Shown here piece by piece: positions 25,831-47,223 of a stretch of 64,000 nucleotides of DNA. The stretch is from Turneriella sp. (lineage in GTDB: Bacteria > Spirochaetota > Leptospiria > Turneriellales > Turneriellaceae), in contig CBDIID010000003.1 in the NCBI GenBank assembly GCA_965279515.1, positions 2,080,001 through 2,144,000 of the forward strand. Reading direction: 5' to 3'. Numbering within the stretch: position 1 is the first letter of the stretch; every line of letters starts with the position of its first letter. The notes under the pieces are model-generated. The model had not been told where the DNA came from. It saw nothing but the letters and a program-made list of their open reading frames with translations, and made no database searches. Made by a program: the position numbers and the translations under genes.

Positions 25831-25835
25831 TCTAA

Positions 25836-27135: not shown

Positions 27136-28326
27136 ATGGTTCGCTTACCGATCGTGAAACTGTACTTATCTGGCCTACTGCTCATCGCTGTGACGGCACT
27201 GGGTGCACAAGCAGCAAAGCCGGATGTAAAACCGGAAACAAAGCCTGCAGCTCCTGCAGTTAAAGAAGTCAAAGCCGAAACAAAACCAGAAGTTAAACCC
27301 GCGGCGAAACCGGAAAATAAACCGGAAACGAAACCGCCTGAAAAAACGGAAGCCAAAACCTTCAAGAGCGACGTGCCCATTGTGATCGAAGCCGATAAGT
27401 CGACCGCAACCGTTGGGCCCGCGATCAAGAAACTGATCTTCATCGATTTTTATAATGAGTCGAACAACCCCAACGCCAAATGGATGGTCGACTCGATCGG
27501 CGAATCGATTTTTGAACTCACGAAAAATAAATATAATTATTCGCGCATTCCCAACAAGGTCTGGCGCGAATACGCGACGCAGAAAAATTTCAAACCCGAA
27601 GACTTTTATAATACCGAAAAACTCCAGGCGATGGGCTATGCGCTGAAGGTGGATGGCATCATTTTCGGAAAGTTTATCACGACCGAAGAAAACATCCAGA
27701 TCAGCGGCAAGATTCTCTCCGTCGTCGACAAAGAAATCATCGCGGAAAAAAACGTCACTGTGCCGTTCTCGAGCCAGATGTTCGAAGATGTGCAGGATGT
27801 CTCGGAGACCCTGGGCAGCCGCATCAAAGACCTGTTCTTCCCGTCAGACCGCGGCGCATTGTGGCGGTCAGCCCTTCTGCCGGGCTGGGGACAATACTAT
27901 AAACAACGCAAAACCTGGGGGTATATCTACGGCGGCGTCATTGGCACGGGTGCAGCGTTCTCACTGTTCTCGCTCATCATGTTACAATCGTCGAAGCGCG
28001 CTTATGAAAATTACAATCCTGACCATGTCGTCACGCCCAACAATGAATTCGGCATCAAAGACCCGGCGGCGGCGCAGGCACAGTTCGCCAAGCTCGAAGA
28101 TACCGCCAACCAATGGTACCAGATTACCATGATCAGCGCCAGCATCACGCTGGGCATCTATCTCTGGCATCTTTTCGATGCCTGGTTCTTCGAAGGCAGT
28201 TATACCGAGATCGCGAAGGGCGGCACTGCACTGAATGGCCGCGGTGGGGATAACCTCCTGGGGGCGAATATCCGCATTAGCAGCGACCGGGATCCCCTGT
28301 CGATCCGCATCGGCTTCGCATTTTGA
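27136..28326 (+). CDS. Exported protein: K/P/E-rich linker, CsgG/TolB_N-like alpha/beta domain, DUF5683-like C-terminal membrane domain
   Basis: Signal peptide, IFIDFYNES...LKVDGIIFGKF...IQISGKILSV, ALWRSALLPGWGQYY, IYLWHLFDAW, ends IRIGFAF. Confidence 0.7.
   Translation: MVRLPIVKLYLSGLLLIAVTALGAQAAKPDVKPETKPAAPAVKEVKAETKPEVKPAAKPENKPETKPPEKTEAKTFKSDVPIVIEADKSTATVGPAIKKLIFIDFYNESNNPNAKWMVDSIGESIFELTKNKYNYSRIPNKVWREYATQKNFKPEDFYNTEKLQAMGYALKVDGIIFGKFITTEENIQISGKILSVVDKEIIAEKNVTVPFSSQMFEDVQDVSETLGSRIKDLFFPSDRGALWRSALLPGWGQYYKQRKTWGYIYGGVIGTGAAFSLFSLIMLQSSKRAYENYNPDHVVTPNNEFGIKDPAAAQAQFAKLEDTANQWYQITMISASITLGIYLWHLFDAWFFEGSYTEIAKGGTALNGRGGDNLLGANIRISSDRDPLSIRIGFAF
27215..27350 (+). repeat. Imperfect 12-bp coding repeats (KPxx peptide)
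   Basis: KPDVKPETKPAA...KPEVKPAAKPENKPETKPPEK, built from aaaccggaa/aaaccagaa units. Confidence 0.7.
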
Positions 28327-28418
28327 GGATTTTTTGCCGGACGTTTATCCTATAGCCGATAAGATAAGGTGCGGGATGTTACCGATCATCCGCTCCCGCG
28401 TTTTACTGTTATACTAAT

Positions 28419-31400
28419 ATGGAAGTTTTTGGGCGCGGCAGGCGAGTCTTTCGCCCCGTTTTTACGGGGTTTATTATTGTCACATTTGCCGCGTCGTGTT
28501 CCTTCCTTAAACTAGACAAAGATAAGAACTGCCTGAACGAGACCTCGGGCTGTTTTAAGCCTGATAAGACCCCACCTAAACTTGCCCAGGCAATTCCAGA
28601 CCCGGCGCAGAACGTCAACGCGCTGCCAACAGTAGACCTGGTCTTCTCCGAAGAGCCCAAAGACGGTGATAACATCAATAACTACACGCTTGATAAATCA
28701 GGGGGGGCCGTTAACATGCAGCTGCTCTCCGTCGAGAAGGTGAACAGCAACACCTATCGATTGCGCTTTGGTGGATCCGTCAACAACGGCCCCATTACCA
28801 TTGGCTTTGCGGCACTCCGGGACTATGGCGGCAATTCGATGAGCAATCCGGCCATGGTTACCTATACAGGTAACGTTACGATGAGTGTCGATATCACCGT
28901 CGACGGCGACCGCAAAGGTGTCAGCCCAGCAGGCTACCCTAACGTGGTCATGCACTTCAAGCATAACTATTACACCGATGCCAGCAATAACTGGGATATC
29001 CGCTCTGTATCAGGCTCTGTCGCCGATTGTGCACTGGGCACGTCGATCAACAGCGGAACGGGGCTGCCAAACTCACAGACTATCGATCAGACAATTTTGC
29101 AGGCCTCATTCGCGAACGGACAGAACATGATCGTGGTCTGTGTGAAAAATACCGTGAATCCCGCGGCGCAAGCGGTTGGCTACTGGCCGATACTTAAACC
29201 CACAGCTACGTTTACGTGGAATATTACTCCACCCAATGATAGCAGTTTCCGCGACCCCGTTGCCGTCAGCGTCACATGCGGCCCGAATAAAGACAAGATA
29301 ATTATGCGGTCCGCCGTGCAGCAAAACACGAATCCCGCAGACCCTAACCCGCTGCCTTCTTTCAATGCCGACGGCTCCATCAATAACGGTTCGCTTTATG
29401 CCGCGGGACTCATGGCAGAAAATCCCGCAAATCCCACACACAGCAAATTCAGTTTCAGTTGCATCGACATCGCGGGCAGAATAAGCACGCCCCCTTTGGC
29501 TGCTTATCATTATTATATCGACAATACGATACCGGCCGTGAACATGCTGCCCGACCCCAACTATCACGATTTCATTTCATCGGTCGTGGGCTCTTTTAAC
29601 ACCACGACGCTGAAATTCAGCACAGACCAAACGAGCAAAACTTATAACATAAGGAAGGGCGGAACTACCTGCGACTTGGGTGGTGACGGCACACTCATTA
29701 CCTCCGGAACCACAGACCCCACTCCGGGAAATCCAACATCGGTCATACTCGATACCAGTACCGCAAACCATTTCACCACTGCGAACACCACGTACGATGT
29801 GCGTGTCTGCATTGCTGGCACGGGTGTTTCATGGGGCATGGCCTACCTGCAAATTACGCGCGATGACAATGTGCCGACGATTACGCCTAACATCGTCGGT
29901 GGCTCGTACGGGGTCATACAGAGTGTTCTTTTCACATGTACTGATAACCAGAGTATCATGGGTTATGAAAGTACGGAACTGGCAGGCTCCACAGCCCCTG
30001 TCGCACCCTCCGGCCCTGTTTATTCGGGAGGCACTTTTCCGTTGCCGGGTAAGGAATTCACTGGAACATTTACGCCGACGGATGCCAGCACGACCATTAT
30101 CCGTTATATGTGCGTCGACAAAGCCAACAATAAATCCACGATTGGCCAGCAGCAATACAGAGTTGATTCAACCCTGCCGAATGTTAACCTTGTCAGCAAT
30201 GAGCGCACCTCGCTCAGCGGTAACGCGGGTGCATACGCAACGTCGCAGCTCATTTGGAACTCGACAAGAGGATCGCTCCCCTATGAGATCCGGCGTTCCG
30301 GTAACTGCAATGGCGGTCCTGCCGGCGATGCGGCGAACACCATTCTCTCCGGTACGACCCCGGTATCCGTAAGCGGGGTTTATCCCAATGTCATCTCTAC
30401 GCTGACGGCGGCAATGTTTCCCACAAATGCGGTAACCTATAACCTGAAGATATGTGTTTTCAATTACCTCGGTACGCCCAGCTATCAGCCCACAGCGCTC
30501 TCTGTACTCCGGGATGATGGCTATCCAACCTTCGCAGGGCTTACTGCGATCGCATCGACCGGTGGGGCAAATTTCACCGTGAGCTGGAATGCCGCTACGG
30601 ATGCAAACTCCGGACCTGCCTTTTACAACATCTACATAGCCACCGCTCCGGGAGGACCATACAATACTGTCAGTTATACCGCAGCGCATCCCGCCACGAG
30701 CATCAATATCACGGTACCGAATCCAGCGCAGACATACTATCTCATCGCCGGAGCCGTGGATATCGCCGGCAACGAAACCAAGGTCACCGCAGCAGAACTT
30801 TCGTCAAAACCCACCATCACCCTCGTCGTTGCGGGACTCGATACCGCAAACAGCAAGACATTCAGCCTGACCGACGGCAGCGCCTCCCAAACCATTACCA
30901 CAAATGCAACGAGCACATGGGCAACGACGCTCGGCATGAATGCGACCTATAACTTTCAGATTACCGCGCAACCTGTCGGCCAGGTCTGCGGCATAAGACA
31001 AAAACAATTCGGTGCATTGGTTTCTGACCTCACTGTCAACGTCGACTGCACGAACGGCCAGATGGTCGCCGGCCGTTTCCAGCAGGTAAAAGCTTCGAAT
31101 GTCAGCTACATGCTTTACCGCGCATCGAGTACGGCGCTAGCCTCGTCGCAGACCAACCCTACATCACTGATCTATGCCGCGGGTTATATCTTTTACGGAA
31201 ACTACGCCGACTGCGATGGCGGCACTCCGGGAAATCAGTATTGCCTTTTCAAAGTTCCTGCAACATCGGGCTCCGTGGCGACGCATGTTACAGGGATAAC
31301 GGCACCGGTACGCGGTGTAACTACCGACGGCACGAGTATTTATTACAGTGTCGAATCACCCAACAATGGAATATACAAAGTCCCTATCGCAGGCGGAACT

Positions 31401-34400
31401 TCTACCTTGCTGACAAATGCGATCACTTCACCATATGGCATCGCCACGGACGGCAATTATCTCTATGTCTGTGGGGCCGGTGCTCTGACGATTCGCCGCA
31501 TTGACCTTGCTACCGGAACAATCGCAGATATCGCGGGTCCATTGGCAAATTATCCGCTGGGTATCGAAGTCGTCGGCACCGATCTTTATTTTACCACATG
31601 GGGTACGCACGCGATCTACAAGGTGCCCAAATCAGGCGGATCACCCACGGTGGTCTTTGGCAGCTCCGGAACTTCGGGCATGCAGGACGGCAATGGAACC
31701 GGCGCACTCTTAAATCAGCCGCACGACCTTGTCTACGACGGCGTCGATAACCTGTACTTCGCAGAGTACGGCGGCAACCGCATGAAAAAGGCCAAACTCT
31801 CGACGGGCAGGGTGATTACACTTTTAGGCGATGGCTCGGCAGCCTTCTCGCTGGGCGGAGGCGCCTCCGCCAAGGTGCAAAATCCCGTTGGCATCACCAG
31901 CGACGGCAAACGTATCTTTCTGAGTAACCATAACGCCGGTTCGAGCGTGGTGCGTATCGCCGATCAAAATAATGTCGGCTACTGGCCACTCAATGCCCAG
32001 CCCTCTGACTTCAGTAGCGATGGTTTCAACGGATCTTTCGATATGACGCCGACCGGCAGCCATACGGTAGTACCGGGTCGTTACAACGAAGCGAACGGAG
32101 CTTATCGCTTTGATGGCTCCTCGACCTGGTTTTCGACCCCACACCAAAACCAGTTCAATCTGAGCAGTGCCTATACGATTAGCGCGTGGATCAACACCAA
32201 CAGCACAGCAAGCCAGCGTATCGTCGACAAGACTACTGCAGGTGCAGCCAACGGCTATGTACTCGATATCGTCTCTAACCGTTATCGCCTGATCCATGGC
32301 GTATCGGTATCGACCGAATTGGTCTCTAACAGCATAGTGACGACGGGCACGTGGGTGCAAGTGCTCGCGACATATTCACAGCTGGAAAAACGCGCGCGCA
32401 TCTATATCAACGGCCACCTCGACGCCGAGCAAATTTTCGGCACTTCTGCTTCGACACCCAGCAATACCCTGGCGCTGCGCATCGGCTCAGATTCCAATAA
32501 TGCCAATGTATTCAGCGGCGCGATGGCGGCTGTACGGATTTATGGCCGGGTTCTCAACGATGCCGAAATCAATGAACTTGCGCAGGATGCAAGCCCAGCC
32601 CAGGTCGGTAACTCCTACAATACCGGTCCCACAGAAGCCGCAGTTATTTTCCAGTTTACCGGCGGCACTGCAGGGAATGCAAATATGACAAGCTCCGGCC
32701 CATCGGGTAACGGGCTTACTCCCTTATGCAGCAGCCCGATCGGCAAGGATGGGGATGCAGCTGGTTCTTGTTATCTTGACGGTAACAACAACCTCGTTAC
32801 CTCAAGTGGCGGCAGCGCGGGAACTCCATGGGGTAGCGCCCCGCGTACCCTTTGCATCTGGTTCAATCCACAGCGGATTCCCGCCAATGACGTGCTCATC
32901 GCCCATGGAAACCCGGTAGCTCCCAATTTCCGCGGCTTTGGCATTACGCTGCTCAACGGTGCGCAGATCCAGTTTTTCAACTGGGGCGGACCGAATGTGG
33001 TCTACAATTATCCGGTTCAACTCAACACGTGGCAGCATGTCTGTGGCACAGCGACGGGGAACACGGTTGAAATGTTCATGAACGGCGCATCTCTCGGCGC
33101 GAATAGCGGCGGCATCGGAACCTTAAATACGGTGAATGACGCCGGATCGGTATTATCTCTGGGTTCGGCACTCGACGGAAATTCTGCCTTGATGTTCCAG
33201 GGCACCATCGACGATGCGCGCATCTATAATAAAGTTCTTACCGCGGCGGAAATCCGCCAGTTGGCCACGCAAGTACCGACGGGACTTGTTGCGCGCTATG
33301 ATTTCAACGGGGACACGAACGATGTCAGCGGCCTGGGGAATAATCTGACCAATAGCGGCGCGACTGCCAGCACCGATCGTTTCGGCATACCAAACGGGGC
33401 CTATCGTTTCAACGGTGCGAATAACCTCATGATAAATTCTTCGACCTCGCTGCCGTTTGCCACGGGCAACTTCGACAGAACAATGTGCTTCTGGGGGCGC
33501 GCCGATCAGGCCCTCAGCGGCGTCCGCATCGGCGTCGCTTATGGCAACAGCTCTACGAATCAGACCTCTCAGATCGGTTTCAACACCCTTAACACCAGTT
33601 CGCCTACAACGTTAGGCTGCGCCTATGGTGCGCCGTGTTCGCCGGCGGGATACATCCACCAGAATACATGGCACCATGTATGTATGGTTGTCAACGCGAC
33701 CAACGCACAAATGTACCTGAATGGCGGCACTCTTGACACCAATGGCGCCGGCGCTGGCACCACTGTTTCTGCAACCGCCTGGAATACACCGGCGGGTCCC
33801 CTTGTCATCGGCAGCTTCAACGGGCAATACTGGTTTCCCGGCGACATGGATGATATCCGGATTTACAACCGTGCGCTTTCGGCTACCGAGATTCAGGCTC
33901 TCGTACAGCAGCCGAACAAAAGGATCTATGTCACAGCGAACACTTACAGCGGTGATCTTAGAAATGGTGGCGCAGGCACAGGTGTGGCAGGCGCTGATAT
34001 CAAGTGCAACGCCGCAGATGCAAATAAGCCAGCGACGGGTGTTTATAAAGCGATGCTTGGCGATGGTTTGAATCGTCGCGCTTGCACCTCGGGTTACTGT
34101 GCAAGCGGTGGAGTCACGGAGGGTATCGATTGGGTACTGAGACCCAATGTAACTTACACAACCAGTGGGGGTACGCTTCCCATCTTTACCGCTGACTGGA
34201 ACGGTTCCTGGAACTTCCTCGGAGCCGCCCCCACAGGTGGAAACTTTCTTAATGCGGTCAGCGCTACAGCTGTGACGCCATGGACGGGAATGACATTTAA
34301 CTGGAGTACCGATGCGGCTTGTGGTCACTGGGATGGCATTGCCACATCGGATGATAAGGGAGTCTTTGGGCGTGCGAATTCCACGTCCCAGCCAGCGAGC

Positions 34401-34499
34401 ACCGGGGGCGTACTCTATGAATTGTGGACGGGCAACACGACGGGAACCATGGTGTCTTGCCTGGCTTCCTCGTATCCGCTCTACTGCGTCGAGCAGTAG
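28419..34499 (+). CDS. Giant surface lipoprotein 1 (Ig-like/Fn3 stalk, NHL propeller, 3 LamG, C-terminal DUF1554/Len-like domain)
   Basis: Lipobox FAAS-C27, DKTPP..FSEE Ig domain, CIDIAG/CVDKAN modules, SWNAATD Fn3, NHL repeats (PYGIATDG, PVGITSDG), three RIY..L..EI LamG ends, tip GADIKCN..YKAML..DWVLRPN..LYCVEQ. Confidence 0.9.
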   Translation: MEVFGRGRRVFRPVFTGFIIVTFAASCSFLKLDKDKNCLNETSGCFKPDKTPPKLAQAIPDPAQNVNALPTVDLVFSEEPKDGDNINNYTLDKSGGAVNMQLLSVEKVNSNTYRLRFGGSVNNGPITIGFAALRDYGGNSMSNPAMVTYTGNVTMSVDITVDGDRKGVSPAGYPNVVMHFKHNYYTDASNNWDIRSVSGSVADCALGTSINSGTGLPNSQTIDQTILQASFANGQNMIVVCVKNTVNPAAQAVGYWPILKPTATFTWNITPPNDSSFRDPVAVSVTCGPNKDKIIMRSAVQQNTNPADPNPLPSFNADGSINNGSLYAAGLMAENPANPTHSKFSFSCIDIAGRISTPPLAAYHYYIDNTIPAVNMLPDPNYHDFISSVVGSFNTTTLKFSTDQTSKTYNIRKGGTTCDLGGDGTLITSGTTDPTPGNPTSVILDTSTANHFTTANTTYDVRVCIAGTGVSWGMAYLQITRDDNVPTITPNIVGGSYGVIQSVLFTCTDNQSIMGYESTELAGSTAPVAPSGPVYSGGTFPLPGKEFTGTFTPTDASTTIIRYMCVDKANNKSTIGQQQYRVDSTLPNVNLVSNERTSLSGNAGAYATSQLIWNSTRGSLPYEIRRSGNCNGGPAGDAANTILSGTTPVSVSGVYPNVISTLTAAMFPTNAVTYNLKICVFNYLGTPSYQPTALSVLRDDGYPTFAGLTAIASTGGANFTVSWNAATDANSGPAFYNIYIATAPGGPYNTVSYTAAHPATSINITVPNPAQTYYLIAGAVDIAGNETKVTAAELSSKPTITLVVAGLDTANSKTFSLTDGSASQTITTNATSTWATTLGMNATYNFQITAQPVGQVCGIRQKQFGALVSDLTVNVDCTNGQMVAGRFQQVKASNVSYMLYRASSTALASSQTNPTSLIYAAGYIFYGNYADCDGGTPGNQYCLFKVPATSGSVATHVTGITAPVRGVTTDGTSIYYSVESPNNGIYKVPIAGGTSTLLTNAITSPYGIATDGNYLYVCGAGALTIRRIDLATGTIADIAGPLANYPLGIEVVGTDLYFTTWGTHAIYKVPKSGGSPTVVFGSSGTSGMQDGNGTGALLNQPHDLVYDGVDNLYFAEYGGNRMKKAKLSTGRVITLLGDGSAAFSLGGGASAKVQNPVGITSDGKRIFLSNHNAGSSVVRIADQNNVGYWPLNAQPSDFSSDGFNGSFDMTPTGSHTVVPGRYNEANGAYRFDGSSTWFSTPHQNQFNLSSAYTISAWINTNSTASQRIVDKTTAGAANGYVLDIVSNRYRLIHGVSVSTELVSNSIVTTGTWVQVLATYSQLEKRARIYINGHLDAEQIFGTSASTPSNTLALRIGSDSNNANVFSGAMAAVRIYGRVLNDAEINELAQDASPAQVGNSYNTGPTEAAVIFQFTGGTAGNANMTSSGPSGNGLTPLCSSPIGKDGDAAGSCYLDGNNNLVTSSGGSAGTPWGSAPRTLCIWFNPQRIPANDVLIAHGNPVAPNFRGFGITLLNGAQIQFFNWGGPNVVYNYPVQLNTWQHVCGTATGNTVEMFMNGASLGANSGGIGTLNTVNDAGSVLSLGSALDGNSALMFQGTIDDARIYNKVLTAAEIRQLATQVPTGLVARYDFNGDTNDVSGLGNNLTNSGATASTDRFGIPNGAYRFNGANNLMINSSTSLPFATGNFDRTMCFWGRADQALSGVRIGVAYGNSSTNQTSQIGFNTLNTSSPTTLGCAYGAPCSPAGYIHQNTWHHVCMVVNATNAQMYLNGGTLDTNGAGAGTTVSATAWNTPAGPLVIGSFNGQYWFPGDMDDIRIYNRALSATEIQALVQQPNKRIYVTANTYSGDLRNGGAGTGVAGADIKCNAADANKPATGVYKAMLGDGLNRRACTSGYCASGGVTEGIDWVLRPNVTYTTSGGTLPIFTADWNGSWNFLGAAPTGGNFLNAVSATAVTPWTGMTFNWSTDAACGHWDGIATSDDKGVFGRANSTSQPASTGGVLYELWTGNTTGTMVSCLASSYPLYCVEQ

Positions 34500-34536
34500 T
34501 CCAGACCTGTAAAAAAGAACAGTCTCGACTCGCCAT

Positions 34537-34553: not shown

Positions 34554-34626
34554 GCAGTAAATTCAGAAAATGTTGGACACCTTGTGGAGGGCGGTTCAGT
34601 ATAATGCTAAAAGGGCGTACCCCACG

Positions 34627-37600: not shown

Positions 37601-40600
37601 ACATCTCTTCTGACGGAACGAACATTTATATTTCCCAGGTCGGCAGTAGCCTTGGCAGCAACACCAATGACGGCATCCGTAAACTGGACCCGGCCGGCAA
37701 CGTCACAACGTTGGTGAGCGGCGCTGCCGTGCTTGACCCTGAAGGGATCGTCGTCTTGGGCAACACGCTCTACTGGGCGAACCGCAATTCGCATCAAGTG
37801 AAAGCGTTGGATATCACCACAGGAGTTGTTTCGGTATTCGCAGGCACTGGCACCCTGGGTGCGTCAGATGGCCCAGGCAGCACAGCCACTTTCAACCAAC
37901 CGATGGGTTTGACTGCCTTGGGCGGCAAGCTCTATGTAACGGAATTTGGAAATCACCGCATTCGGGTGATTAACATCTCATCGCAGGCGGTGAGTACACT
38001 GATGGGCAGTAGCGCCGGTGCAGTCGACGGTACGGTCTCCGTGGCTAAATTTAACGGGCCTTCAGGAATCACAACAGATGGTTTCGATTTATATGTTACC
38101 GACTATATAGGCCGTACTGTGAGGCGCATCCGCCTCGACCGCAATGGCGGCAGCAACCACATTGCCTCAACCATCGTGGGCAGCGGGGCAACGGGCGGGG
38201 CCAACGGTATCGGCACAGTGGCCACCTTTACAGGGCCCGTGGCCATCGCCACGAATGGCAGACAGCTTTTTGTCTCTGATGAGGGTAATGGAACCATCCG
38301 CAAAATTGCTGATTGGGGCGCAGTGGGCTACTGGCCCAATAACTTTGGTAACCAGCAAGAGTATGCATCCGACATCGGTTCGCCCCTGACTGGCAGTTTA
38401 ACAGGCTCGATTTCCGATACAAGCACTGCTGACAGGTACAATAATGCCGGCGGAGCACAAAATCTGCAGGGCGCGGAATACGTGACAGCAAGCGCGACAG
38501 GCGTGACGGGCACCGCCTGTAACGCAACGCTTGCTGCATGGTATAAACCGAGCTCGCTCGCTGCCTCGCAGGGGATTGCCTACAACGGAAATAGCGGCAA
38601 CAGTGGCTTTGGTCTCATGTTCGACGCGACCACCGGCATCCGCGGCCTGCTGGGTGGCGTTGTGTGGATACCGGCCGTAGGCAACAGCTTCATGCCTCCG
38701 CTAAATCAATGGACACACGTCACATTGCGGTGCTCATCTGGTAACCGCTGGACTCTTTTCATTAACGGCCATAAACTCGCCGACAGCGTTAACTCCCCGC
38801 TGTCGAATCCTTTGGGCCAAATGACAATCGGGCGCGATACGATTTCCGCATACGTCAACGGGTCTGTTACAGACATACGGTTATACAACCGCTCGCTCGA
38901 CGAGGGTGAAATTAACGAACTGGCGCAGGACGCTTCGACCAGCATTGCTGTAACTGGCATCAGCCGTAATGCAGGAGCCACAGGTTTATTGACGCATTTC
39001 GAAATGGATAACGGCTCACTTGCTGATTCAGGCGCGATAAACACCCCGATCGTCAGCTCGAACGGCACTCTCGTTACTGGGAAGGACGGCGATACGAACG
39101 GAGCTTACTCGTTCAGCGCGGCATCCAGCCAATACCAGGCGACGTCATCCATCATCGCTGACGGTGCATCCGCGAATGGTGAAATCACTGTCGCGGCGTG
39201 GGTCAGCCCGACGGCATTGCCATCTGTGGGCTCTGTGTACCTGATCGCCTCACACTACTCGGCGTCGGATACAGCCCGTGGCTATTACTTTGAGTACTTT
39301 AACAATGGCGGCACACAGCAGCTCTACTGGACACCATCGGGCGGGTCCGGTGCTTATACGACCAACATCAGCATGCCGCTCAACACCTGGTCGCACGTTG
39401 CGGTAACACATACGGGAACCACTGCGACAATTTACGTAAACGGTCAGGCCATGCCGACGGCACAGGTTTCGCCGCGCCCCTTGGCACAGACGACCGTAGC
39501 GACGCCGATCTATGTGGGCAGGCGCGACGACGGTCTCCTCACCGACGGGAAGGTCGACGATGTGCGCATCTACAACAATGCGCTATCCGCATGGCAAATT
39601 CGTCAACTCGCTACAAACATTCCGACGGGGCTTGTCGCCCGCTATGATTTCACGGGAGATCGTAGCGACATCAGCGGTTTCGGACAAGACCTCAGCAACA
39701 ACGGAGCAAACCTGGGTACGGATCGCTTCGGCCTCGCCAATGCCGCCGCTACATTCAACGGCAGCTCGAACTTCGACGGAGCGATGGCAAACTTCCCTTT
39801 GGGTAACTCACCACGCACGGTCTGCGCGTGGACGAACCCAACCGCATTGTCCGCTGCATTTTCCGAAGTGGTCATGTATGGAGTGAATGGGACATCACAA
39901 GGATGGGGCTTCGGCATGGATGGCTCCGCGACACCGCCTTATGGGCGCATGTTCATATTGGATACCGCCGGAGATTTAGCATACAATCTACCGCATGGCT
40001 TGAACGTTTGGAGGCACATGTGCGCCACGTACAGCGGCGCAACGGAACAGCTCTTTGTCGATGGTACCGCGGTTGCAAGTAAGCCCGTTACATTGGCAAC
40101 GGCATCGGGTACACTCAAGATCGGCCGCGGTATTTTCGCAGGTGCCGACTATTTTACCGGAAGCATTGACGATGTGCGGATCTACAACCGCGCGCTAACG
40201 AATACAGAAATTCAAACATTACTGCAGCAGCCGAATAAGCGTATCGTCCTCAGCGGCCCGACGATGCAAGGTGATATGGGTGGATCGCCTTCAGGCATCA
40301 ACGGGGCGGATCAGCGATGCCCTGGCGGTTATAAAGCGCTTATTGTGGACGGAGCAGTTCGCAGAGCGTGTACGAGTCCAAACTGCACAACAAGCGGCAT
40401 TAGCGAAAATATTCAGTGGGTTATCCGCCCCAATATCACATATCTGCGGGGTGATTTATTCACCATTATCGGTACGGCAAATTTTAACGGTATTGTCCCG
40501 CTACCTTTGACAACGAGCATCACCGGCGCTGCCGATACGGCCTGGACGGGGTTAGAAATTGACTGGACCACAAATAGCAATACCTGCGGCGACTGGTCAT

Positions 40601-40713
40601 CTATCGGCTCTTTGGGACAATATGGTTCGGGAAGCTCTACCGGTGGTTTCTCCATATCCACCACCAGCACCCTATGCTTGAGCGCACTATCGGTGTATTG
40701 CGTTGAGCAGTAA
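34627..40713 (+). CDS. Giant surface lipoprotein 2 (paralog; same architecture, DUF1554/Len-like tip)
   Basis: Likely start ATG 34627 (MKSVAHFFTLVYAGIVLS-C). Same module order as protein 1. Ends GADQRC..YKALIVD..WVIRPN..VYCVEQ. Confidence 0.9.
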   Translation: MKSVAHFFTLVYAGIVLSCSGLKLDKDSNCINQSSGCFRADKTPPEFRQAVDPLPYLPGNNTISTLAKVDIMFSEELNNPKTSDFIFSGPGTGTSGIKVNAIEKIDKYTYRLLVSASLETGNIFLDFPNLKDYNGNPITGNTQINYYGNVDIAVPFTVNRNGLSSSSGYSQIDVNWSYTYVPPTASTTIYTVKLTNGSTDCNTASALAWSGVGTPIPSPAAGSTVTSGTSYSFSIDTNDVTTSGDQVLLICVSNATHNKRGTAAISFLQNSSAPTTTLSPTFGPSGSPKALTFTCAPYMDKIIYSSDFTSGNGVDPLVGSPTDPTFNAATGAVTSGSLYDAASKPLTPYIADPTHSRFEFRCIDRAGNIEAIKNSGNLNTETYVVDSTLPEVTITHVYRATTTREITGLSNKALAHQSADIIWHTNQVTKPFSLRKGSTSCLAADGTLVTSGTTPGVANQDITTTISYNSSGIAVGTNDLRLCVQNGGSYGQDTRTIIRTTDNHTPTTTVNVGGGSYGTVQNIVVTCNDTNPEGVIYDASSADGATVPTPPTGPLYSPIGVRISGLDHLSPITLLNQKTTTINWRCIDVGGNESTLGTATYTIDSVIPLVNVTYFERPSVSNLAGAYPSVQMNWTTDKPGLQYEIRNSGNCNGGFGGGGTATRYSGTAAASNSQNLSIASGDFPVVGNTYNIKVCVFNAANIAGYQTTANDVTRDETRPVIGDPSTTNTPVNSTNFTISWNAASDNVGVAAYRIFRSVTSGVYGSTPDYTAVSTSTTLTMPDTQKYFLRVVPIDAAGNVPVTPANYTEISTKPDIRLIISGLSGTIKINDGAQADQSFAANIPGPGSLWNTPLTLGQNYAFSITQQPAGQLCAIREKQFGSLSGDLTITVNCAVGYITGGTYLQIPPAPVNYMLYRGRASTDVARSVSGVSGAFVSSGIAITSSGTSFVTDPGTSQIYRISGSSLISVAGNGSIAGIADGNGAAATFHNPSYISSDGTNIYISQVGSSLGSNTNDGIRKLDPAGNVTTLVSGAAVLDPEGIVVLGNTLYWANRNSHQVKALDITTGVVSVFAGTGTLGASDGPGSTATFNQPMGLTALGGKLYVTEFGNHRIRVINISSQAVSTLMGSSAGAVDGTVSVAKFNGPSGITTDGFDLYVTDYIGRTVRRIRLDRNGGSNHIASTIVGSGATGGANGIGTVATFTGPVAIATNGRQLFVSDEGNGTIRKIADWGAVGYWPNNFGNQQEYASDIGSPLTGSLTGSISDTSTADRYNNAGGAQNLQGAEYVTASATGVTGTACNATLAAWYKPSSLAASQGIAYNGNSGNSGFGLMFDATTGIRGLLGGVVWIPAVGNSFMPPLNQWTHVTLRCSSGNRWTLFINGHKLADSVNSPLSNPLGQMTIGRDTISAYVNGSVTDIRLYNRSLDEGEINELAQDASTSIAVTGISRNAGATGLLTHFEMDNGSLADSGAINTPIVSSNGTLVTGKDGDTNGAYSFSAASSQYQATSSIIADGASANGEITVAAWVSPTALPSVGSVYLIASHYSASDTARGYYFEYFNNGGTQQLYWTPSGGSGAYTTNISMPLNTWSHVAVTHTGTTATIYVNGQAMPTAQVSPRPLAQTTVATPIYVGRRDDGLLTDGKVDDVRIYNNALSAWQIRQLATNIPTGLVARYDFTGDRSDISGFGQDLSNNGANLGTDRFGLANAAATFNGSSNFDGAMANFPLGNSPRTVCAWTNPTALSAAFSEVVMYGVNGTSQGWGFGMDGSATPPYGRMFILDTAGDLAYNLPHGLNVWRHMCATYSGATEQLFVDGTAVASKPVTLATASGTLKIGRGIFAGADYFTGSIDDVRIYNRALTNTEIQTLLQQPNKRIVLSGPTMQGDMGGSPSGINGADQRCPGGYKALIVDGAVRRACTSPNCTTSGISENIQWVIRPNITYLRGDLFTIIGTANFNGIVPLPLTTSITGAADTAWTGLEIDWTTNSNTCGDWSSIGSLGQYGSGSSTGGFSISTTSTLCLSALSVYCVEQ

Positions 40714-40750
40714 GGACGGTTTTGGAGTGTGTAAAAAACTGGACACCTTA

Positions 40751-40767
40751 CAGGCACGGATTGAGCA
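40751..40767 (+). promoter_or_regulatory. Possible weaker sigma54-type site upstream of giant lipoprotein 3
   Basis: CAGGCACG-GATT-GAGCA keeps GG-N10-GC spacing, but the -12 element deviates from TTGC. Confidence 0.3.
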
Positions 40768-40791
40768 TAAGATACAGTTCGGGATTAACCT

Positions 40792-43700
40792 ATGCTAACG
40801 AACATGGAAAAAAACCTCGAGTCAAAATTGATACAGCCGGGCGCGGCTCTCCGGTTGGCGTTTTTCTCCACATTGCTCCTTGCGGCCTCATGCTCCGGAT
40901 TAAAGCTCGATAAAGATACCAACTGCCTGAACGAAAAATCCGGCTGCTTCAAGGCAGATAAGACCGCCCCCAAAGTAATCGACTATGTAAGCGAACCACC
41001 GCCGGATAGTAACGGCAAGATCAGCAGCCTCGCCTACGTCGATGTTACATTCTCTGAAGAGCCTAAGGGCGCTGACATCGCAACGAATTATGCCTTTGAA
41101 AATAATACCCAGGGAGGAGATTTAATTGTCACGTCAGTGCAGAAGCTGAGCGATTATAAGTACCGTATCTTCGCTGCTGGCAATGTCGGCGATGGTGCTT
41201 TCACTTTGAATTATTCCAAGCTGATCGATTATGCCGGCAATCACATCGACACCTTGGCAAAGCCGGTGGTCATGAACGGCAGCTCAAAATTTATCATCAG
41301 CGCCAACATCGATCATCTGGGTGTCAGTAGCGGCGGTGGTTATGCGAATATCACACTCTCCTTTTCTCACAATTATTCGGCCGACCAAACCAATAACAAT
41401 AGTTATGAAGTAAGAATTACCAGCGGCGCGGCGCAATGCGTTAATACAGACCCAACACCAAGCGTAGGCGTTCCGATTGGCTCGTCACTGGCAGCGGGGA
41501 GTACAATCACTTTAACGAATATTCCCTCCGGGAACTTCGCGATAGGTCAGAACCGCATCGTCGTCTGCGTCAAGAACCAGGTGAACCCATCCGCTGTGGC
41601 AACCTGGTCGTCGTCCGTATACCGTTTTGACAATTCGCCTGCGATTACGACTGGTTTTTCACCAGTCGCTGACGCATACCAGGCTTCGAGTCCTCTGACG
41701 ATAACATGCACCGGATTTAACTCAAAGATTGTCTACACCAGTGAATGGTTACAATCCGGTGCTCCTGCAAATCCGGCCACGCCAACTTTTGACGGTAGCG
41801 GAAATCCGGGCACAGGGAACCTTTACACTAATCCTATCCCCATAAGCAACAATGGAAATCCGACAAACTGGAAATTTTCATGGCGCTGTATAGATATCGC
41901 TGGTAATCAAAGCAGCCTCACATCGAATGTAGCTTACACGATCGATAGCACGCTGCCGGGTGTGATGGTAAATCTTGATTCGAGCTATCGTGCGTTCGTC
42001 TCAACGATCGGAGGATATAGTTCGACGACGTTGAATTTCACTTCGGATCAGGCGAACCATCAATACAACATTGCAAGTGGAACAACTTTGTGTTCTCCTG
42101 GCGGTGGCGGGACTTCTCTCATCGGATCTGGCCCCTTTTACACCAACGCAAGCGCAAACGGTGCAAATCCTCCGCAAGTAATTCCCGCCGGTTCTTTCAC
42201 ATCGGTGAGTCCAGCCGTAAATCACGTGCGTATCTGCGTTCAGGGAACGGTCTCAACGGTTTGGGGGACTGCATACCTGCAGATCATCCGCGATGATACC
42301 GCGCCCAGTGTTGCGGCAAATACACCGACAGGAAGCTATGGGGCACTTCAGGATGTTACTTTCACGTGCAACGACCCGGATTTTCATGGAGACAAAGTCG
42401 CATACACGATCGCAACACAAACCGGCTCCATCGCCCCTGCTATACCGCCATTAGACCCGACATTTAATGCCACGACCGGCGATATCACAAACGGTTTTGA
42501 ACAGACAGGCCCCTACAGTCCCCCCGACCAGTCGACGACGATTGTAAAATTTAAGTGTATCGATAAGGCCGGCAACCAATCGTCGGTGCAAACCACCCAG
42601 TACACCATCGACGCGACATTGCCAGCCGTGAATTTCGTTTCGCAGAACCATGCGGGCATAAGCTCGACCGCAGGGGCATTTGCGAGCGCCGACGTCGTGT
42701 GGAATGCCAACCGTGCCGGCCTTCAATACCGCGTTCGTAGGGTGGCGAATTGCAATCACGCGGGCGATCCGGGAAATACCATTCTTTCAGGGACGACGCC
42801 CACCGTGGGTACGAATATTACCAGCAATCTGACGACGGCGATGTTACCGACTAACAATAACCAGTATCCGATTCGGTTGTGCGTATTCAACTATGCAAAC
42901 CAATCGACATACCAATCGACAAATGTAACAGTCACACGCGACGACACGCCGCCGACGATCCTTGCGGCAAACCTGACGCCAACGATCACCGCTGCGGGCG
43001 GAACTAATTACACTATTTCATGGAATGCCGCCGATGACACGGCGGGCTCGGGTGTAGCTTTTTACCGCATCTTTCGCGATGGGGCTATGACCCCGACATT
43101 TCCCGGGTATCCCAATACCCCCGACTATATCGCTGTGGCAACTGCCGGAACCAATTCGGCAACCATCGCGATGCCCGATGCCTCGAAATATTACCTGCGC
43201 ATTGTTCCTGTAGATGCCGCGGGCAATGTCATGGCACTCGCGGCGTCTTATAATGTTATAGCTACGAGACTTAACCTCATTGTCAGCGTCACAGGTTATA
43301 CAACCGGCGCCGGTGATTTCCGCGTGCAACAGGGCGGCGATACGCTCGCTTTTAATACCACACCGGGAGGCACCCAGACATTTGCAACCGGGTTCACACC
43401 CGGCAGTTCTTACAGCGTATCGATTACGGCGCAGCCCACAAACCAGATTTGCTCTTTTGTGCCGAAGCAGTTCGGTACAATTACGAGCGATCTGACACTG
43501 CAGGTACAATGCCTTCAGGGTCAATGGGTTGGAGGTAACTACCGGGCCACGCCTCCCGTTCCGCTCAATTATCTGCTCTACCGCGGCAAAGTCACGACCC
43601 TTGCGGGCAACGGCGTTGCAGGTTTCGTAGATAATGGAACCGGGACCTCAGCGCAATTTCAGAATCCCGAGTTTTTGGTTTATTTGAACAATGCGTTGTA

Positions 43701-46700
43701 TGTGGCGGATTCCAATAACAGAAGAGTGAGGAGAGTTGACCTGACGGGTTCTTATGCGGTAACAACAACCGCGGGTTCGGCAACCGCGGCTGCTGGCGAT
43801 ACAACCGACGACGGCGCGTGCACAACGGCAAAATTCGGCGTCATGACCGCCATCGCAACCGATGGCGTGAATTTATACACCGGCGAATACAGTCCGGCAC
43901 GACGCATCCGCAAGATTTCTGACTTTGCGGGCACCTGCACCGTGAGTACTTTTGCGGGAGCGGGCCCCTATGGTTATACCGATGGTCCCGCGGCAACAGC
44001 GCAGTTCTCCGATATTTACAGCCTCGTTAGCGATGGTACGAGCCTTTTTGTCAGTGAAAACGGGAATAACCGTATCCGCAAAATAGATCTCGCAACCGGG
44101 ACCGTTTCAACAATCGCGGGCAACGGAGCGGCGGCGAGCGTCGACTCAGGCATCGGAACATCCGCTTCCTTTAACTCCCCTACCGGAATGACCGTCATCG
44201 GTACCGACCTCTATCTTGGCGATGTCTGCTGGACCTGCTCCGGCAACAATGGCAACACGATACGTAAAATTTCCCTCATCGCGCCTTACCCAGTCACAAC
44301 CGTTGCTGGCGTTGGGGGAACTGCGGCTTTGGCCGATGGCCCGGGAAGTACCGCAAAGTTCAACACTCCCATCGCACTCACGACTGACGGCACATCCATC
44401 TTTGTTGCCGACCTGAACAATTCGGTCATCCGCCGTATCGATCCGAAAAACGGCTACCGGGTTTCGACGCTTGCGGGGAGCACCGCTTGGGGCCATGCTG
44501 ACGGTACAGGGCCTGCTGCTGTCATCAACAGATCGCATGGCATTGCGACCGACGGTCGCAGGCTCTACTTTGGAGAATGGGGCGGCCATCGCATCAAAAA
44601 GCTCGAGGATGCAGGCCTTGTCGGTTACTGGGCGATTAATCCGGGGGTGAATCCCAACGACTACAGTAGCGACAATACGGCATCGCTGCATGGTTCGGTT
44701 TTGGGTGGTCCATTGAGTACTCTAGCCGACCGGTTCGGAAATGCGAATAAGGCAAGTTTATTTAACGGCACGAGCCAAAGCATTTCAGCCAGTGCAACCG
44801 GACTGCCGACCGGCAATGCCCCGCGCACGATGTGCGCGTGGGTAAAACCAACGGCAGCGCCGACCGCGGGGCATTTGATCGCGACCTACGGCAATCCATC
44901 TGTGAACCAATCCTTTGGGTTATATCAGTCGTATGTGAGTGGTGTTGAAAACGTAGGTTTAACCGGTTACGCACAGGATGTTGTGGTACCTTATATCCTT
45001 TCTACAACCAAATGGACCCATCTCTGCGCTTGGGCAAACGGGACGACCGGAAAGTTATTTCTTAACGGCAAAGTGATTGGCTCGTATGCGAACACCTTCG
45101 CCACCGGCAGCACCGGGCTGCGCATCGGCGCACAGCAGGGAAATACGCAGTATTTTGGCGGAGGTATTGCCGACGTGCGTATCTACAATCGCGCACTGAG
45201 CGAAGGCGAAATAAACGAATTGGCACAAGATGCCGCATCTGCACAAGTCGGTCAGACCTTCAGCACGGGCGGAACCGGGCTCCTGGCACATTATACACTG
45301 GCAAATTCCACAGCACCACAGGGACCAGTTGGTAGCTCACTAAGCGCTGCTGGTTCGGGAGGCTCGTTAATTACCGGCAAGGATGGCGCACCGAATGGGG
45401 CTTTTTATTATGACGGTGGCGGCTATCATTTTACAAATGCTTATGCCGGACTCCCCGTCGGCAATGCACCTCGCACACATTGCGGTTGGGTTCGACCAGC
45501 GAATAAGATTGCCACGGGCCAGTATTTTACCTTGCTGCAGTATGGCCTCAACGGTACGAATCAGAAATCCGGCTTATGGCTGCGTGACAATGCGGGCGTA
45601 AAAAAGCTGGTCAATGGCGGCGGCGGCAATGACCATGAGGCAACTTTTAACTTCCCCATCAACACATGGATTCATGTCTGCAATACGTACGATGGCACCA
45701 ACTCTTCGCTCTATGCTAACGGGCAACTTCTGGACACGGCCTCTTATCCGGCGTGGAATACCCAAGCCGGGGCGCTTGGCTTAGGCCGAGACCTGCCCAC
45801 TGCGGGATTTCTAACCGGGGGCCTTGCGGATATTCGAATTTATGATAATGCCTTAACCGCAAACCAGATACGCCAACTCGCTACGCAGGTACCGGCAGGC
45901 CTCGTGTTACGCATCGATACAAATGGAGATTTTAATGATGTCAGCGGTTTCGGCAACAGCCTGGTGAGCAACCCAGGGACTCTTGTCGCGGGGCGCCGCG
46001 GTATCGCCAGCACGGCCTACCGTTTCGTCGCACCGCAGCAGGCGCAAATAGCGCATGCCGCGGAAATCATGCAGCAAACTGATATCACTTGGTCTTTTTG
46101 GATGAAATCGCCGGATATGAGTAGCGTGGTCGGACAGATTTTGGGGAAATATGTCGTGACGCCGAACTCTGGCTGGGTAATTAAGTACGATCAGGTCAAT
46201 TACGCTCACGGATGGACAGTTGGCACAGCGGGTAACGGGGCTTTCAGCAATTCGCATCCCGTACCCTCAAACAATGTCTGGAACCATTATGCCTATGTCC
46301 GCTCCGGAGCGGGTTTGACCATTTATATAAATGGTGTTTCTTACAGTAATATAACGGCAGGAAACGGTACCGCAATTATTCCTAATACTGTAGATCTCAA
46401 TATCGGTCTCAACGCAGGTAGCGGAGATGTCAGTCTTCAAGATGTGCGCATCTACAACCGGGCTCTTTCGACAAGTGAAGTACAGGCACTTACCGGATAT
46501 CATGCGGTGCAAAGTGCGAGCGGACTGAGCCTTCACGTTCAGGCGGATACTTTCTCCAATTTAAGCGACGGCAATGCGATTACCACAAACTGGCGCAATT
46601 CCGTTATACAGACACCAGCGTCGGGAAGCGGCACGGTTGCGGGCAATCCCCGCTATGTCAGCGGCACGAGCAGCCTTTTGGGGGGCATGCCAGCAGTAGA

Positions 46701-47223
46701 ATTCGACGGTACGGCCGGAAAATATTTCGATTTCGGATTCCCCACGTATACGTACTCCGGGGTAACCGTATGCACCGCCGCAACCCGTAAGGGCAATAGC
46801 TACCGGGGCCTTGTCGAGAAGCGCGGCGCTACGGCGACGACGAATAGCTGGGGCATGTTGACAGATTTGCCCACAAGCGCGCTGAAATTTGAAATGGATT
46901 CAACTGCATCGGCGGAGGTTGTGACAGCCATCGCAGACGATACTCCCGCAATTTACTGCGTCGTCAGCGGAGCGGGGAATTTGCTGAGCAGTTACCTGAA
47001 CGGACAGGCCTCGTCTTCTGTTTCCAAAACCATTATGTCTGGCTCAAACGCCGACAGACTGGTCGTCGGTTCACGATTCGATTTGGCAAGTTCGTACTAC
47101 GGGCAGATCGGTGAAGTCTTCGTTATGACTAAAGATGCCTCGGCAGCGGAACGCCGCATCGCCGAATGTTATCTTTCTGCGAAGTACTCAATTCCGATGA
47201 CTGGTGGAGCCGTTTGCCCCTAG
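40792..47223 (+). CDS. Giant surface lipoprotein 3 (paralog; tip is a different LamG-like jelly-roll, not DUF1554)
   Basis: Lipobox LAAS-C with the same stalk/NHL/LamG order. C-terminus LSLHVQADT..PAVEFDG..YYGQIGEVFV..ERRIAECYLSAKYSI. Start may be ATG 40804. Confidence 0.9.
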   Translation: MLTNMEKNLESKLIQPGAALRLAFFSTLLLAASCSGLKLDKDTNCLNEKSGCFKADKTAPKVIDYVSEPPPDSNGKISSLAYVDVTFSEEPKGADIATNYAFENNTQGGDLIVTSVQKLSDYKYRIFAAGNVGDGAFTLNYSKLIDYAGNHIDTLAKPVVMNGSSKFIISANIDHLGVSSGGGYANITLSFSHNYSADQTNNNSYEVRITSGAAQCVNTDPTPSVGVPIGSSLAAGSTITLTNIPSGNFAIGQNRIVVCVKNQVNPSAVATWSSSVYRFDNSPAITTGFSPVADAYQASSPLTITCTGFNSKIVYTSEWLQSGAPANPATPTFDGSGNPGTGNLYTNPIPISNNGNPTNWKFSWRCIDIAGNQSSLTSNVAYTIDSTLPGVMVNLDSSYRAFVSTIGGYSSTTLNFTSDQANHQYNIASGTTLCSPGGGGTSLIGSGPFYTNASANGANPPQVIPAGSFTSVSPAVNHVRICVQGTVSTVWGTAYLQIIRDDTAPSVAANTPTGSYGALQDVTFTCNDPDFHGDKVAYTIATQTGSIAPAIPPLDPTFNATTGDITNGFEQTGPYSPPDQSTTIVKFKCIDKAGNQSSVQTTQYTIDATLPAVNFVSQNHAGISSTAGAFASADVVWNANRAGLQYRVRRVANCNHAGDPGNTILSGTTPTVGTNITSNLTTAMLPTNNNQYPIRLCVFNYANQSTYQSTNVTVTRDDTPPTILAANLTPTITAAGGTNYTISWNAADDTAGSGVAFYRIFRDGAMTPTFPGYPNTPDYIAVATAGTNSATIAMPDASKYYLRIVPVDAAGNVMALAASYNVIATRLNLIVSVTGYTTGAGDFRVQQGGDTLAFNTTPGGTQTFATGFTPGSSYSVSITAQPTNQICSFVPKQFGTITSDLTLQVQCLQGQWVGGNYRATPPVPLNYLLYRGKVTTLAGNGVAGFVDNGTGTSAQFQNPEFLVYLNNALYVADSNNRRVRRVDLTGSYAVTTTAGSATAAAGDTTDDGACTTAKFGVMTAIATDGVNLYTGEYSPARRIRKISDFAGTCTVSTFAGAGPYGYTDGPAATAQFSDIYSLVSDGTSLFVSENGNNRIRKIDLATGTVSTIAGNGAAASVDSGIGTSASFNSPTGMTVIGTDLYLGDVCWTCSGNNGNTIRKISLIAPYPVTTVAGVGGTAALADGPGSTAKFNTPIALTTDGTSIFVADLNNSVIRRIDPKNGYRVSTLAGSTAWGHADGTGPAAVINRSHGIATDGRRLYFGEWGGHRIKKLEDAGLVGYWAINPGVNPNDYSSDNTASLHGSVLGGPLSTLADRFGNANKASLFNGTSQSISASATGLPTGNAPRTMCAWVKPTAAPTAGHLIATYGNPSVNQSFGLYQSYVSGVENVGLTGYAQDVVVPYILSTTKWTHLCAWANGTTGKLFLNGKVIGSYANTFATGSTGLRIGAQQGNTQYFGGGIADVRIYNRALSEGEINELAQDAASAQVGQTFSTGGTGLLAHYTLANSTAPQGPVGSSLSAAGSGGSLITGKDGAPNGAFYYDGGGYHFTNAYAGLPVGNAPRTHCGWVRPANKIATGQYFTLLQYGLNGTNQKSGLWLRDNAGVKKLVNGGGGNDHEATFNFPINTWIHVCNTYDGTNSSLYANGQLLDTASYPAWNTQAGALGLGRDLPTAGFLTGGLADIRIYDNALTANQIRQLATQVPAGLVLRIDTNGDFNDVSGFGNSLVSNPGTLVAGRRGIASTAYRFVAPQQAQIAHAAEIMQQTDITWSFWMKSPDMSSVVGQILGKYVVTPNSGWVIKYDQVNYAHGWTVGTAGNGAFSNSHPVPSNNVWNHYAYVRSGAGLTIYINGVSYSNITAGNGTAIIPNTVDLNIGLNAGSGDVSLQDVRIYNRALSTSEVQALTGYHAVQSASGLSLHVQADTFSNLSDGNAITTNWRNSVIQTPASGSGTVAGNPRYVSGTSSLLGGMPAVEFDGTAGKYFDFGFPTYTYSGVTVCTAATRKGNSYRGLVEKRGATATTNSWGMLTDLPTSALKFEMDSTASAEVVTAIADDTPAIYCVVSGAGNLLSSYLNGQASSSVSKTIMSGSNADRLVVGSRFDLASSYYGQIGEVFVMTKDASAAERRIAECYLSAKYSIPMTGGAVCP

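Follow-up and report, generated by a model that had tools for sequence, protein, structure and literature searches.

The closest described counterparts of the system reported here are found in the lipopolysaccharide (LPS) translocon of Bacteroidota, which exports surface lipoproteins and contains the protein LptT (bioRxiv 10.64898/2026.10.03.756453; this and the other publications are cited for those parts of their texts that were available). LptT is described there as a helical outer-membrane (OM) protein: two of its helices are long, cross the membrane and project from the cell, and two are short and enter from the periplasm. It binds strands 1-2 and the beta-taco of LptD. It is not a homo-oligomer, unlike other helical OM proteins. 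The same work describes LptQ, an eight-stranded barrel that anchors the surface lipoprotein LptR, the two genes being always adjacent (10.64898/2026.10.03.756453). The Slam proteins of the type XI secretion system (T11SS) combine TPR with a 14-stranded DUF560 barrel and read a barrel domain of their cargo, and 185 of 353 Slam homologues have an adjacent lipoprotein (PMC5449769). Here we describe a four-gene array in a window of 64,000 nucleotides (the whole stretch of DNA that was analysed) from Turneriella sp. (GCA_965279515.1, contig CBDIID010000003.1, positions 2,080,001-2,144,000), in which a gene for a predicted OM protein, the partner, is followed by three genes for giant lipoproteins. 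The locus is real and conserved, and it holds an apparently undescribed pair of predicted OM partner and predicted surface lipoprotein that joins an LptT-type unit to a motif recurring across phyla.

The array consists of the partner gene (27136..28326, 396 aa) and the giants G1 (28419..34499, 2026 aa), G2 (34570..40713, 2047 aa, where Met20 may be the true start) and G3 (40792..47223, 2143 aa). All four open reading frames lie on the plus strand, to which all feature coordinates refer unless a minus is given, just as the initial annotation had placed them, and the intergenic gaps are 92, 70 and 78 bp in array order. The GC content of the array resembles that of the remaining window, and positions 27200-47199 are spanned without difference by one contig from a public run, which may be the assembly's own source. 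Promoter and terminator scans did no better than chance (17 vs 18.0; 22 vs 19.7) and lend no support to a single operon. Sequences closely homologous to the partner or to G1 carry the names Turneriella or Spirochaetota, and arrays of one to four giants occupy the orthologous site across the genus.

Domain architecture of the partner protein

The partner was annotated initially as an exported protein, and it does have a signal peptide, one without a lipobox. This is followed by a Pro/Lys-rich linker, a domain with the TolB_N/LpoB/FlgT/CsgG fold that is predicted to be periplasmic (residues 97-236; 27424..27843), a DUF5683 unit of two short and then two long helices (residues 237-349; 27844..28182) and a tail ending in phenylalanine. 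The AlphaFold model, made from 104 sequences, has a pLDDT (predicted local distance difference test) of 88.6; in it the alpha/beta domain is followed by a pair of short helices, a pair of long ones that a beta-hairpin connects, and a disordered tail. The helices (model positions 152-161, 165-169, 173-205 and 224-265) have a pLDDT above 90. The small beta-hairpin that caps the helical hairpin (28024..28056) would face outwards. The C-terminal alternating strand (28294..28323, pLDDT below 50) resembles an OM beta-signal, and its terminal Phe is kept in 57 of 65 partner homologues.

DUF5683 is the sole Pfam match of the partner (34.1 bits for a cut-off of 26.7; E 3e-8). No function for it was found in the literature that mentions the family, and in the available part of a published list a P. 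gingivalis DUF5683 protein stands among outer-membrane-vesicle proteins with its localisation given as unknown. Bacteroidota loci were fetched by a motif scan; 80 of 120 were analysed and 76 had a DUF5683 gene, which is a stand-alone gene following parB in 73. The partner's C-terminal portion aligns with this parB-adjacent family over 110 columns that include all four helices (hhalign 97.7%, E 2e-12), and a profile derived from the partner matches 73 of the 76 copies at E<1e-3. The two short and two long helices of the model also have the topology described for LptT. A fold search with the DUF5683 part returned only generic helical hairpins (Z about 8); the LptT coordinates (PDB 38OL) were absent from the structures searched, so that its silence on LptT is no evidence either way.

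The link between DUF5683 and LptT comes from Flavobacterium. The available text on LptT names no DUF or Pfam family; in it fjoh_1207 is LptT2, which has 62% identity to LptT, and Fjoh_1210 is SusG (10.64898/2026.10.03.756453). The accessible part of another preprint describes Fjoh_1208 as a protein with GH13, CBM26, a beta-trefoil module and a type IX secretion system (T9SS) tail. Two stand-alone DUF5683 genes were present in four of five Flavobacterium genomes, the copies being 58-62% identical. In two of these four the second copy abuts an amylase with GH13, CBM26 and a T9SS tail, then GH97 and then a GH13 lipoprotein, SusG_C being matched in one of the two lipoproteins; the third genome has GH97 and a lipoprotein fragment beside the second copy, and the fourth has other genes. 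The gene order in the first two of these genomes is the one expected for fjoh_1207-1210. Synteny and paralogue identity thus make it very likely that DUF5683 is the LptT family, and very likely also that the partner is a protein of this family without being the LptT orthologue. As such it would therefore probably be a helical OM protein. The partner resembles LptT in having two half-helices and two long helices, in being exported, in its Phe end and in its tie to surface-lipoprotein biogenesis, to which LptT adds a binding site for other subunits. LptT, however, is a stand-alone, essential protein whose gene lies beside parB and is unlinked to cargo, whereas the partner is fused to TolB_N, multiplied into paralogues and placed directly before lipoproteins with the motif described below. 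No DUF5683 gene was found beside the chromosomal parB of this genome.

The alpha/beta fold of the N-terminal domain is shared with CsgG/HfaB, TolB_N, LpoB, FlgT, PelC and FlgO. It was closest to TolB (1c5k; Z 12.8, root-mean-square deviation 2.6, 121 aligned), followed by FlgT (Z 11.9) and PelC (Z 10.1), while CsgG scored below TolB (Z 8.5, deviation 4.7, 123 aligned); LpoB was matched in structure and also by sequence profile (E 7e-4). CsgG is a lipoprotein with membrane beta-hairpins that form an oligomeric barrel. The partner differs from the CsgG/HfaB/TolB_N group, with which it shares 8-16% identity, in lacking a lipobox and membrane-spanning beta-hairpins. A CsgG-type channel was rejected, there being no Cys in the signal region, no long membrane hairpins and only short strands in the N-domain. 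The initial label of CsgG/TolB_N-like consequently holds for the fold and fails for the channel features, and the membrane hairpin also proposed at that stage is present as a helical hairpin which is part of a four-helix LptT-type unit. Slam identity was rejected as well: Pfam finds only DUF5683 and the model holds an alpha/beta domain and helices, with no TPR and no DUF560 barrel. A genome-wide search with PF04575 (Slam) matched no control and says nothing on the presence of Slam. Having no lipobox and no barrel, the partner is neither CsgG nor Slam. As in Slam systems an OM-protein gene stands beside a presumed lipoprotein cargo whose members have a conserved part in common (PMC5449769, available part), which here is the N-terminal tether.

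Linkage to lipoproteins and the tether motif

This genome has five genes that join TolB_N to DUF5683, and each has a lipoprotein gene directly 3' of it. Four of these lipoproteins are of type A, defined by C-x-N-C-L-N-x4-C-F followed by an immunoglobulin (Ig) domain, and one is of the variant type B. The linkage was examined for 56 full-length partner genes (loci L001-L060 and the genome's own loci), 53 of them distinct; one own partner had been removed by an overlap filter, and it too precedes a type A gene. Directly downstream of 41 of the 53 lies a related lipoprotein (35 type A, 6 type B), three partners are at a contig edge and nine have neither type next. The background rate is 365 lipobox-positive genes, by a loose filter, among 2814 same-strand neighbours. 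Seen from the side of the cargo, 50 genes in 41 genomes match the profile of motif plus Ig domain from its start, and by hand count 41 of them adjoin a partner or sit in a partner-headed array, with three more continuing arrays on split contigs; since the profile derives from genes beside partners and the genomes are related to one another, these counts are descriptive. Linkage of the partner to such lipoproteins elsewhere had been set beforehand as a test of the initial proposal, and it was found. The proposal of an undescribed lipoprotein family with a dedicated, co-encoded partner likewise agrees with the conserved linkage, and no matching publication stood among those listed in a search of literature open without subscription.

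The type A family occurs in 17 of 19 genomes of the window's own family, weak Ig-only matches being counted among the 17, and in none of 21 genomes of other families, seven of which are Leptospira-like; the giants themselves were not found in the seven Leptospira-like genomes searched. The partner also heads lipoproteins of 360-1200 aa with other heads. It goes with the N-terminal tether motif and not with the giants as such. The survey of Leptospiraceae and other groups that had been suggested from the outset found the giants in their own family only, while partner and motif recur beyond it.

In 44 aligned N-termini, themselves selected by motif, N11, C12, N14 and C19 are invariant. The tether takes the form N-C-L-N/D here and N-x-x-D-P in other spirochaete groups and in the Bacteroidota phylum, and type A aligns with N-x-x-D-P as the form with two extra cysteines. 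Among the distant loci joining TolB_N and DUF5683 (17 rows, two at contig edges, mostly from two genomes of one family) a lipoprotein adjoins in 13 of 15, and N-x-x-D-P follows soon after the Cys in eight of these 13, with a near form in two and none in three. A further 20 DUF5683 loci were collected after the motif had been predicted: 13 were all the low-scoring matches from a sample of 41 genomes of the Bacteroidota phylum, five were all the out-of-class matches from a sample of 121 Spirochaetota genomes, and two were hand-chosen Leptospira-like loci. In seven of the 20 a lipoprotein follows, as judged by eye, and five of these seven have the motif. It was present at all three TolB_N-DUF5683 genes of other spirochaete groups in this set, and two motif loci of one Bacteroidota-phylum genome carry a different N-domain. 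In seven of the 13 loci of the Bacteroidota-phylum sample (L241, L242, L244, L248, L249, L252 and L253) the low-scoring DUF5683 gene follows the gene of a protein of about 1000 aa.

In the genome as a whole, 10 of 605 candidate lipoproteins have the motif, against 1.8 in shuffled sequences (maximum 8 in 200); of the ten, five are in partner operons and two are orphan family members. The same genome holds 21 TolB_N-like genes without DUF5683, mostly with OM-type C-termini, and 16 of them are followed by a lipoprotein, a pairing for which LptQ-LptR is a precedent. None of these 16 lipoproteins carries the motif, so the motif goes with the DUF5683 unit and not with the periplasmic domain. The beta-hairpin tip is kept in partners of type A cargo and missing in the main type B clade, a pattern that comes from one type B clade plus one outlier, one or two events in all, and so does not count as a statistical test. 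All 13 Leptospira-like genomes that were searched hold DUF5683 genes, some of which precede lipoproteins with a partial motif.

The pairing was also assessed by complex prediction. Residues 95-396 of the partner with residues 28-161 of G1 received a score of 0.53, whereas the best of three controls had 0.00, and three runs had at least 95% contact agreement with a partner pLDDT of 86. Among 157 solved pairs 116 came up to the mark, as did 2 of 215 mismatched pairs; 18 of the 157 solved pairs did so with a score of 0.60 or under. Both passing mismatches also scored 0.60 or under, and the score is therefore weak support.

Two orphan family members with the full motif and no adjoining partner, of 1922 and 1237 aa, lie at G000:C3:795673-801441 and 1269879-1273592. 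Small motif lipoproteins of 360-390 aa are found at partner loci G000:C3:643229-647009 and 3513572-3518782, L021, L016, L020, L201 and L203; they end in an aromatic W-D tail and are flanked by phage-tail-fibre-like genes (Peptidase_S74 matches in L021 and L203, Collar in L201), and they may hold fibres. At G000:C3:4595238-4607008 a partner is followed by a motif lipoprotein of 1211 aa and, with overlapping stop and start, by a protein of 2265 aa whose beginning looks RHS/YD-like by eye. At G000:C3:988388-990511 (L233) a lipoprotein of 160 aa whose tether is a near-motif comes after two DUF5683-like genes in tandem, which have N-domains of other kinds. The small cargo gene of L017 is broken and the partner of L036 is frameshifted, by decay or assembly error.

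The giant lipoproteins

G1-G3 share 33-34% protein identity over about 1960-2160 columns, and the longest stretch over which their DNA matches measures 104 bp, with 74% identity, in keeping with the early remark that no long DNA identity was to be seen. A Cys follows a hydrophobic stretch at residue 27 (G1), 38 (G2) and 34 (G3). In G1 the predicted lipid Cys27 and the tether motif (28497..28556) precede a stalk of about eight Ig-like domains (28578..31067; Big_5-like, alternating two-Cys, Fn3-like and QPxxQxC modules, the last occurring once per giant), a head of one beta-propeller and three LamG domains (31116..33923) and a DUF1554 tip, the Len-type domain (33963..34496; Pfam E 3e-23). The tether motif of G2 lies at 34681-34740 and its DUF1554 tip at 40288-40710; that of G3 lies at 40891-40950, and its tip is a weak match to a fourth LamG-type domain (about 46504-47220). 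The module order claimed at first for the three proteins, from lipobox-like Cys through Ig stalk, propeller and three LamG domains to a tip, was found in all of them, with three Laminin_G_3 stretches in each by Pfam.

Residues 27-916 of G1 were modelled as an all-beta chain (AlphaFold, 24 sequences, pLDDT 84), which we read as eight Ig-like domains in the model, whereas Pfam gives only weak matches for the Ig and Fn3 modules (Big_5 E 0.038, fn3 E 0.025), and Foldseek returned for the stalk only generic multi-Ig chains (TM-score under 0.3). The teneurin-like character of the NHL propeller shows as a weak TEN_NHL match in G3; NHL is matched in G2 and G3 and a DUF5050 propeller in G1. The labels TafC, OmpL47 and LIC11435 suggested by NCBIfam for proteins of the array were rejected since the matches are far under the cut-offs.

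Len and Lig proteins are leptospiral adhesins, and those of the Lig type have tandem Big_2 repeats. The giants are like Len, Lp95 and Lig in being lipoproteins with Ig-like stalks and, in G1 and G2, DUF1554 tips, but they are far larger and carry a propeller and three or four LamG domains. Identity with LenA/LenB was rejected (NF047482 matches the G2 tip only, at 43.8 bits for a cut-off of 300), as was identity with Lig (no Big_2 match in the giants by Pfam). Lp95 is described, in the available part of the source, as a DUF1554 lipoprotein (PMC4109591). From its domain content, and by what LamG and Len domains do elsewhere, an adhesion or lectin role is predicted for the giants.

The giants are mosaics with a head/stalk junction near the boundary of Fn3 and Ig8, as judged from the arrays of genomes G005, G007, G002, G011 and G001 together with G1 of the window. 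The second giant of G005 is 73-83% like first-position giants in its tether and stalk and 83-99% like the third giant of G007 in Ig8, propeller and LamG domains. Likewise, G1 and the first giant of G001 are 80-86% alike in the head and about 46% in the stalk. The giants thus appear as a lineage-restricted, apparently undescribed family of predicted adhesins with exchangeable heads; no publication describing them, the gene pairing or the tether motif was among those listed in a search of literature open without subscription. The first giant is DUF1554-tipped in six of seven genomes with arrays and the last is LamG-type-tipped in all five genomes that hold two or more complete giants, so that the order of tips along the arrays looks fixed. 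The second giant of locus L001:11204-17348 is frameshifted, which can be real decay or an assembly error.

Next to the array in the window, the genes for a lipase and its chaperone (24766-26933, minus strand) are divergent from the partner gene, and a penicillin amidase gene (47232-49874, minus strand) converges on G3. In several genomes of the genus the array likewise lies between lipase and penicillin amidase, which was taken as synteny only.

Possible roles of the partner and their meaning

The explanation that we favour, and to which we would give a little less than an even chance, is that the LptT-family partner binds the tether beside the lipid-bearing Cys, and that the predicted adhesins would therefore be docked on the cell surface. 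The genes, their domains, the conserved linkage, the motif with its tie to DUF5683 and the mosaic heads are observed, and the mechanism that follows is inferred from them. The giants would be lipidated and disulfide-bonded in the periplasm and would use a general way across the OM, probably that of the Lpt translocon. The partner would sit in the OM with its TolB_N-fold domain in the periplasm, its two half-helices in the inner leaflet and its helical hairpin outward, and the hairpin region would grip the tether at a distance of some ten residues from the lipid, serving as a protein anchor as LptQ does for LptR. That pair is similar in that the gene of an OM protein adjoins that of a surface lipoprotein, which LptQ anchors through its outer part, and it differs in that LptQ is a barrel inside the translocon (10.64898/2026.10.03.756453, as far as available) whereas the partner is helical, has a periplasmic domain and faces a cargo of 2000 aa. 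Through its periplasmic domain the partner may be coupled to the cell wall or to Tol-Pal. The eight-Ig stalk would lift the head of propeller, LamG and DUF1554 domains, and exchange of heads by recombination would vary what is bound.

A number of observations weigh against this anchor model. The identification of LptT with DUF5683 comes from gene order in kin of F. johnsoniae and not from the LptT sequence. DUF5683 serves other purposes too: the stand-alone Bacteroidota copies follow parB in nearly all cases, and none of the 76 precedes a gene with the motif. In the available text single deletions of lptT or lptT2 gave no export defect (10.64898/2026.10.03.756453). Of the nine partners lacking a motif lipoprotein directly downstream, five have no lipoprotein there at all; the remaining four comprise one with 666 bp to the contig end, one head-to-head with a type A gene, one before another lipoprotein and one with a frameshift. 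Moreover, six of the 50 motif-plus-Ig genes are orphans, the genomes are kin and their linkage counts are not independent, and 13 of the 20 extra DUF5683 loci have no lipoprotein next. The motif pattern was drawn up after the earlier loci had been seen, and the score of the partner/G1 complex falls in the weak band with no interface returned. Finally, a single partner gene can stand before as many as four giants, an arrangement that suits a reusable adaptor for export no less than a one-to-one anchor.

Such an adaptor, the chief rival of the anchor and in our view possible if rather unlikely, would dock its LptT-like unit at the lateral gate of LptD and recruit motif lipoproteins to the LPS translocon; its paralogues would be cargo-specific, the motif an export signal, and the partner would be released after export. 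The contacts of LptT with LptD and the export of surface lipoproteins by that translocon speak for it, as does the presence of LptA, LptB and LptC homologues in this genome. The missing parB-adjacent gene fits too, the seven DUF5683 matches of the genome being the five genes fused to TolB_N plus the two in tandem that precede a lipoprotein. One partner heads arrays of one to four giants, and orphans could be served in trans. No LptD candidate was located here with PF19838, PF04453, PF03968 or the LptA profile, a point against the adaptor that is limited by PF04453 having missed LptD in four Leptospira-like genomes also. Two further features point back to the anchor: about 16 sister pairs share the periplasmic domain with barrel-like ends, which has the look of interchangeable anchors, and the outward tip varies with the type of cargo. 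A channel made by the partner itself, a CsgG- or PelC-like ring with the helices as a Wza-like channel, by analogy with Slam or curli, is in our judgement highly improbable. Its fold is common to the ring-forming FlgT, PelC and CsgG, it adjoins lipoproteins as Slam does and the other helical OM proteins are homo-oligomeric, yet the model has no membrane beta-hairpins or barrel, LptT does not form homo-oligomers according to the text cited above, and a cargo with many Cys would, by analogy, probably cross partly folded and need a wide channel. The role of an anchor or adaptor is hence more probable for the partner than that of a CsgG-like pore for export, which narrows the original proposal of an export, anchoring or assembly factor to its anchoring or adaptor side.

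The partner might also form a periplasmic or inner-membrane complex, either as an inner-membrane protein with two helices or by binding at the periplasmic face, so that the giants never reach the surface. We hold this to be very unlikely. The two long helices are hydrophobic (mean 19-residue hydropathy 1.46 and 1.53), one homologue is annotated as a TM2-domain membrane protein, the LpoB, PelC and TolB folds are periplasmic, and the surface location of the giants is itself a prediction. The hydropathy of the two helices nevertheless falls among the values of the Bacteroidota family (1.0 and 1.67), to which LptT, located in the OM, very likely belongs, the terminal Phe is conserved, and a long Ig stalk with swapped LamG/DUF1554 heads would suit an outward role. 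There is scarcely any likelihood, to our mind, that partner and lipoproteins lack a physical link and are merely co-regulated or co-inherited in a surface island, the partner serving another OM machine. The unrelated lipase and penicillin amidase flank the orthologous locus and are equally conserved, and cargo-free partners and orphan giants exist. Against this, the pairing recurs at five separate loci of the genome, survives a head-to-head rearrangement (L029, L030) and turns up again, motif included, in other groups of spirochaetes and in the phylum Bacteroidota.

A wider reading, which we put forward tentatively and at odds clearly short of even, is that the helical OM proteins of the LptT family (DUF5683) make up a system, coded by motif and spread across phyla, which would either load surface lipoproteins onto the LptD translocon or hold them after export. 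DUF5683 fused to TolB_N-type or other periplasmic domains would read an N-x-x-D-P tether or its disulfide-stapled N-C-L-N form.

The route by which Leptospira lipoproteins reach the surface, and the flippase involved, are stated to be unknown in the part of the literature available (PMC11358297). The locus links this question to a family newly placed at the gate of an LPS translocon that exports lipoproteins. It offers a concrete partner, a motif of about ten residues and natural variants, with cargo from 150 to 2150 aa and barrel-ended sister pairs. It also names a likely family for DUF5683 and suggests a second use for a very rare class of helical OM proteins. If the cross-phylum reading is true, the system would supply the missing surface-lipoprotein pathway of Leptospiria, and the tether would be a sequence tag from which surface display can be predicted in genomes.

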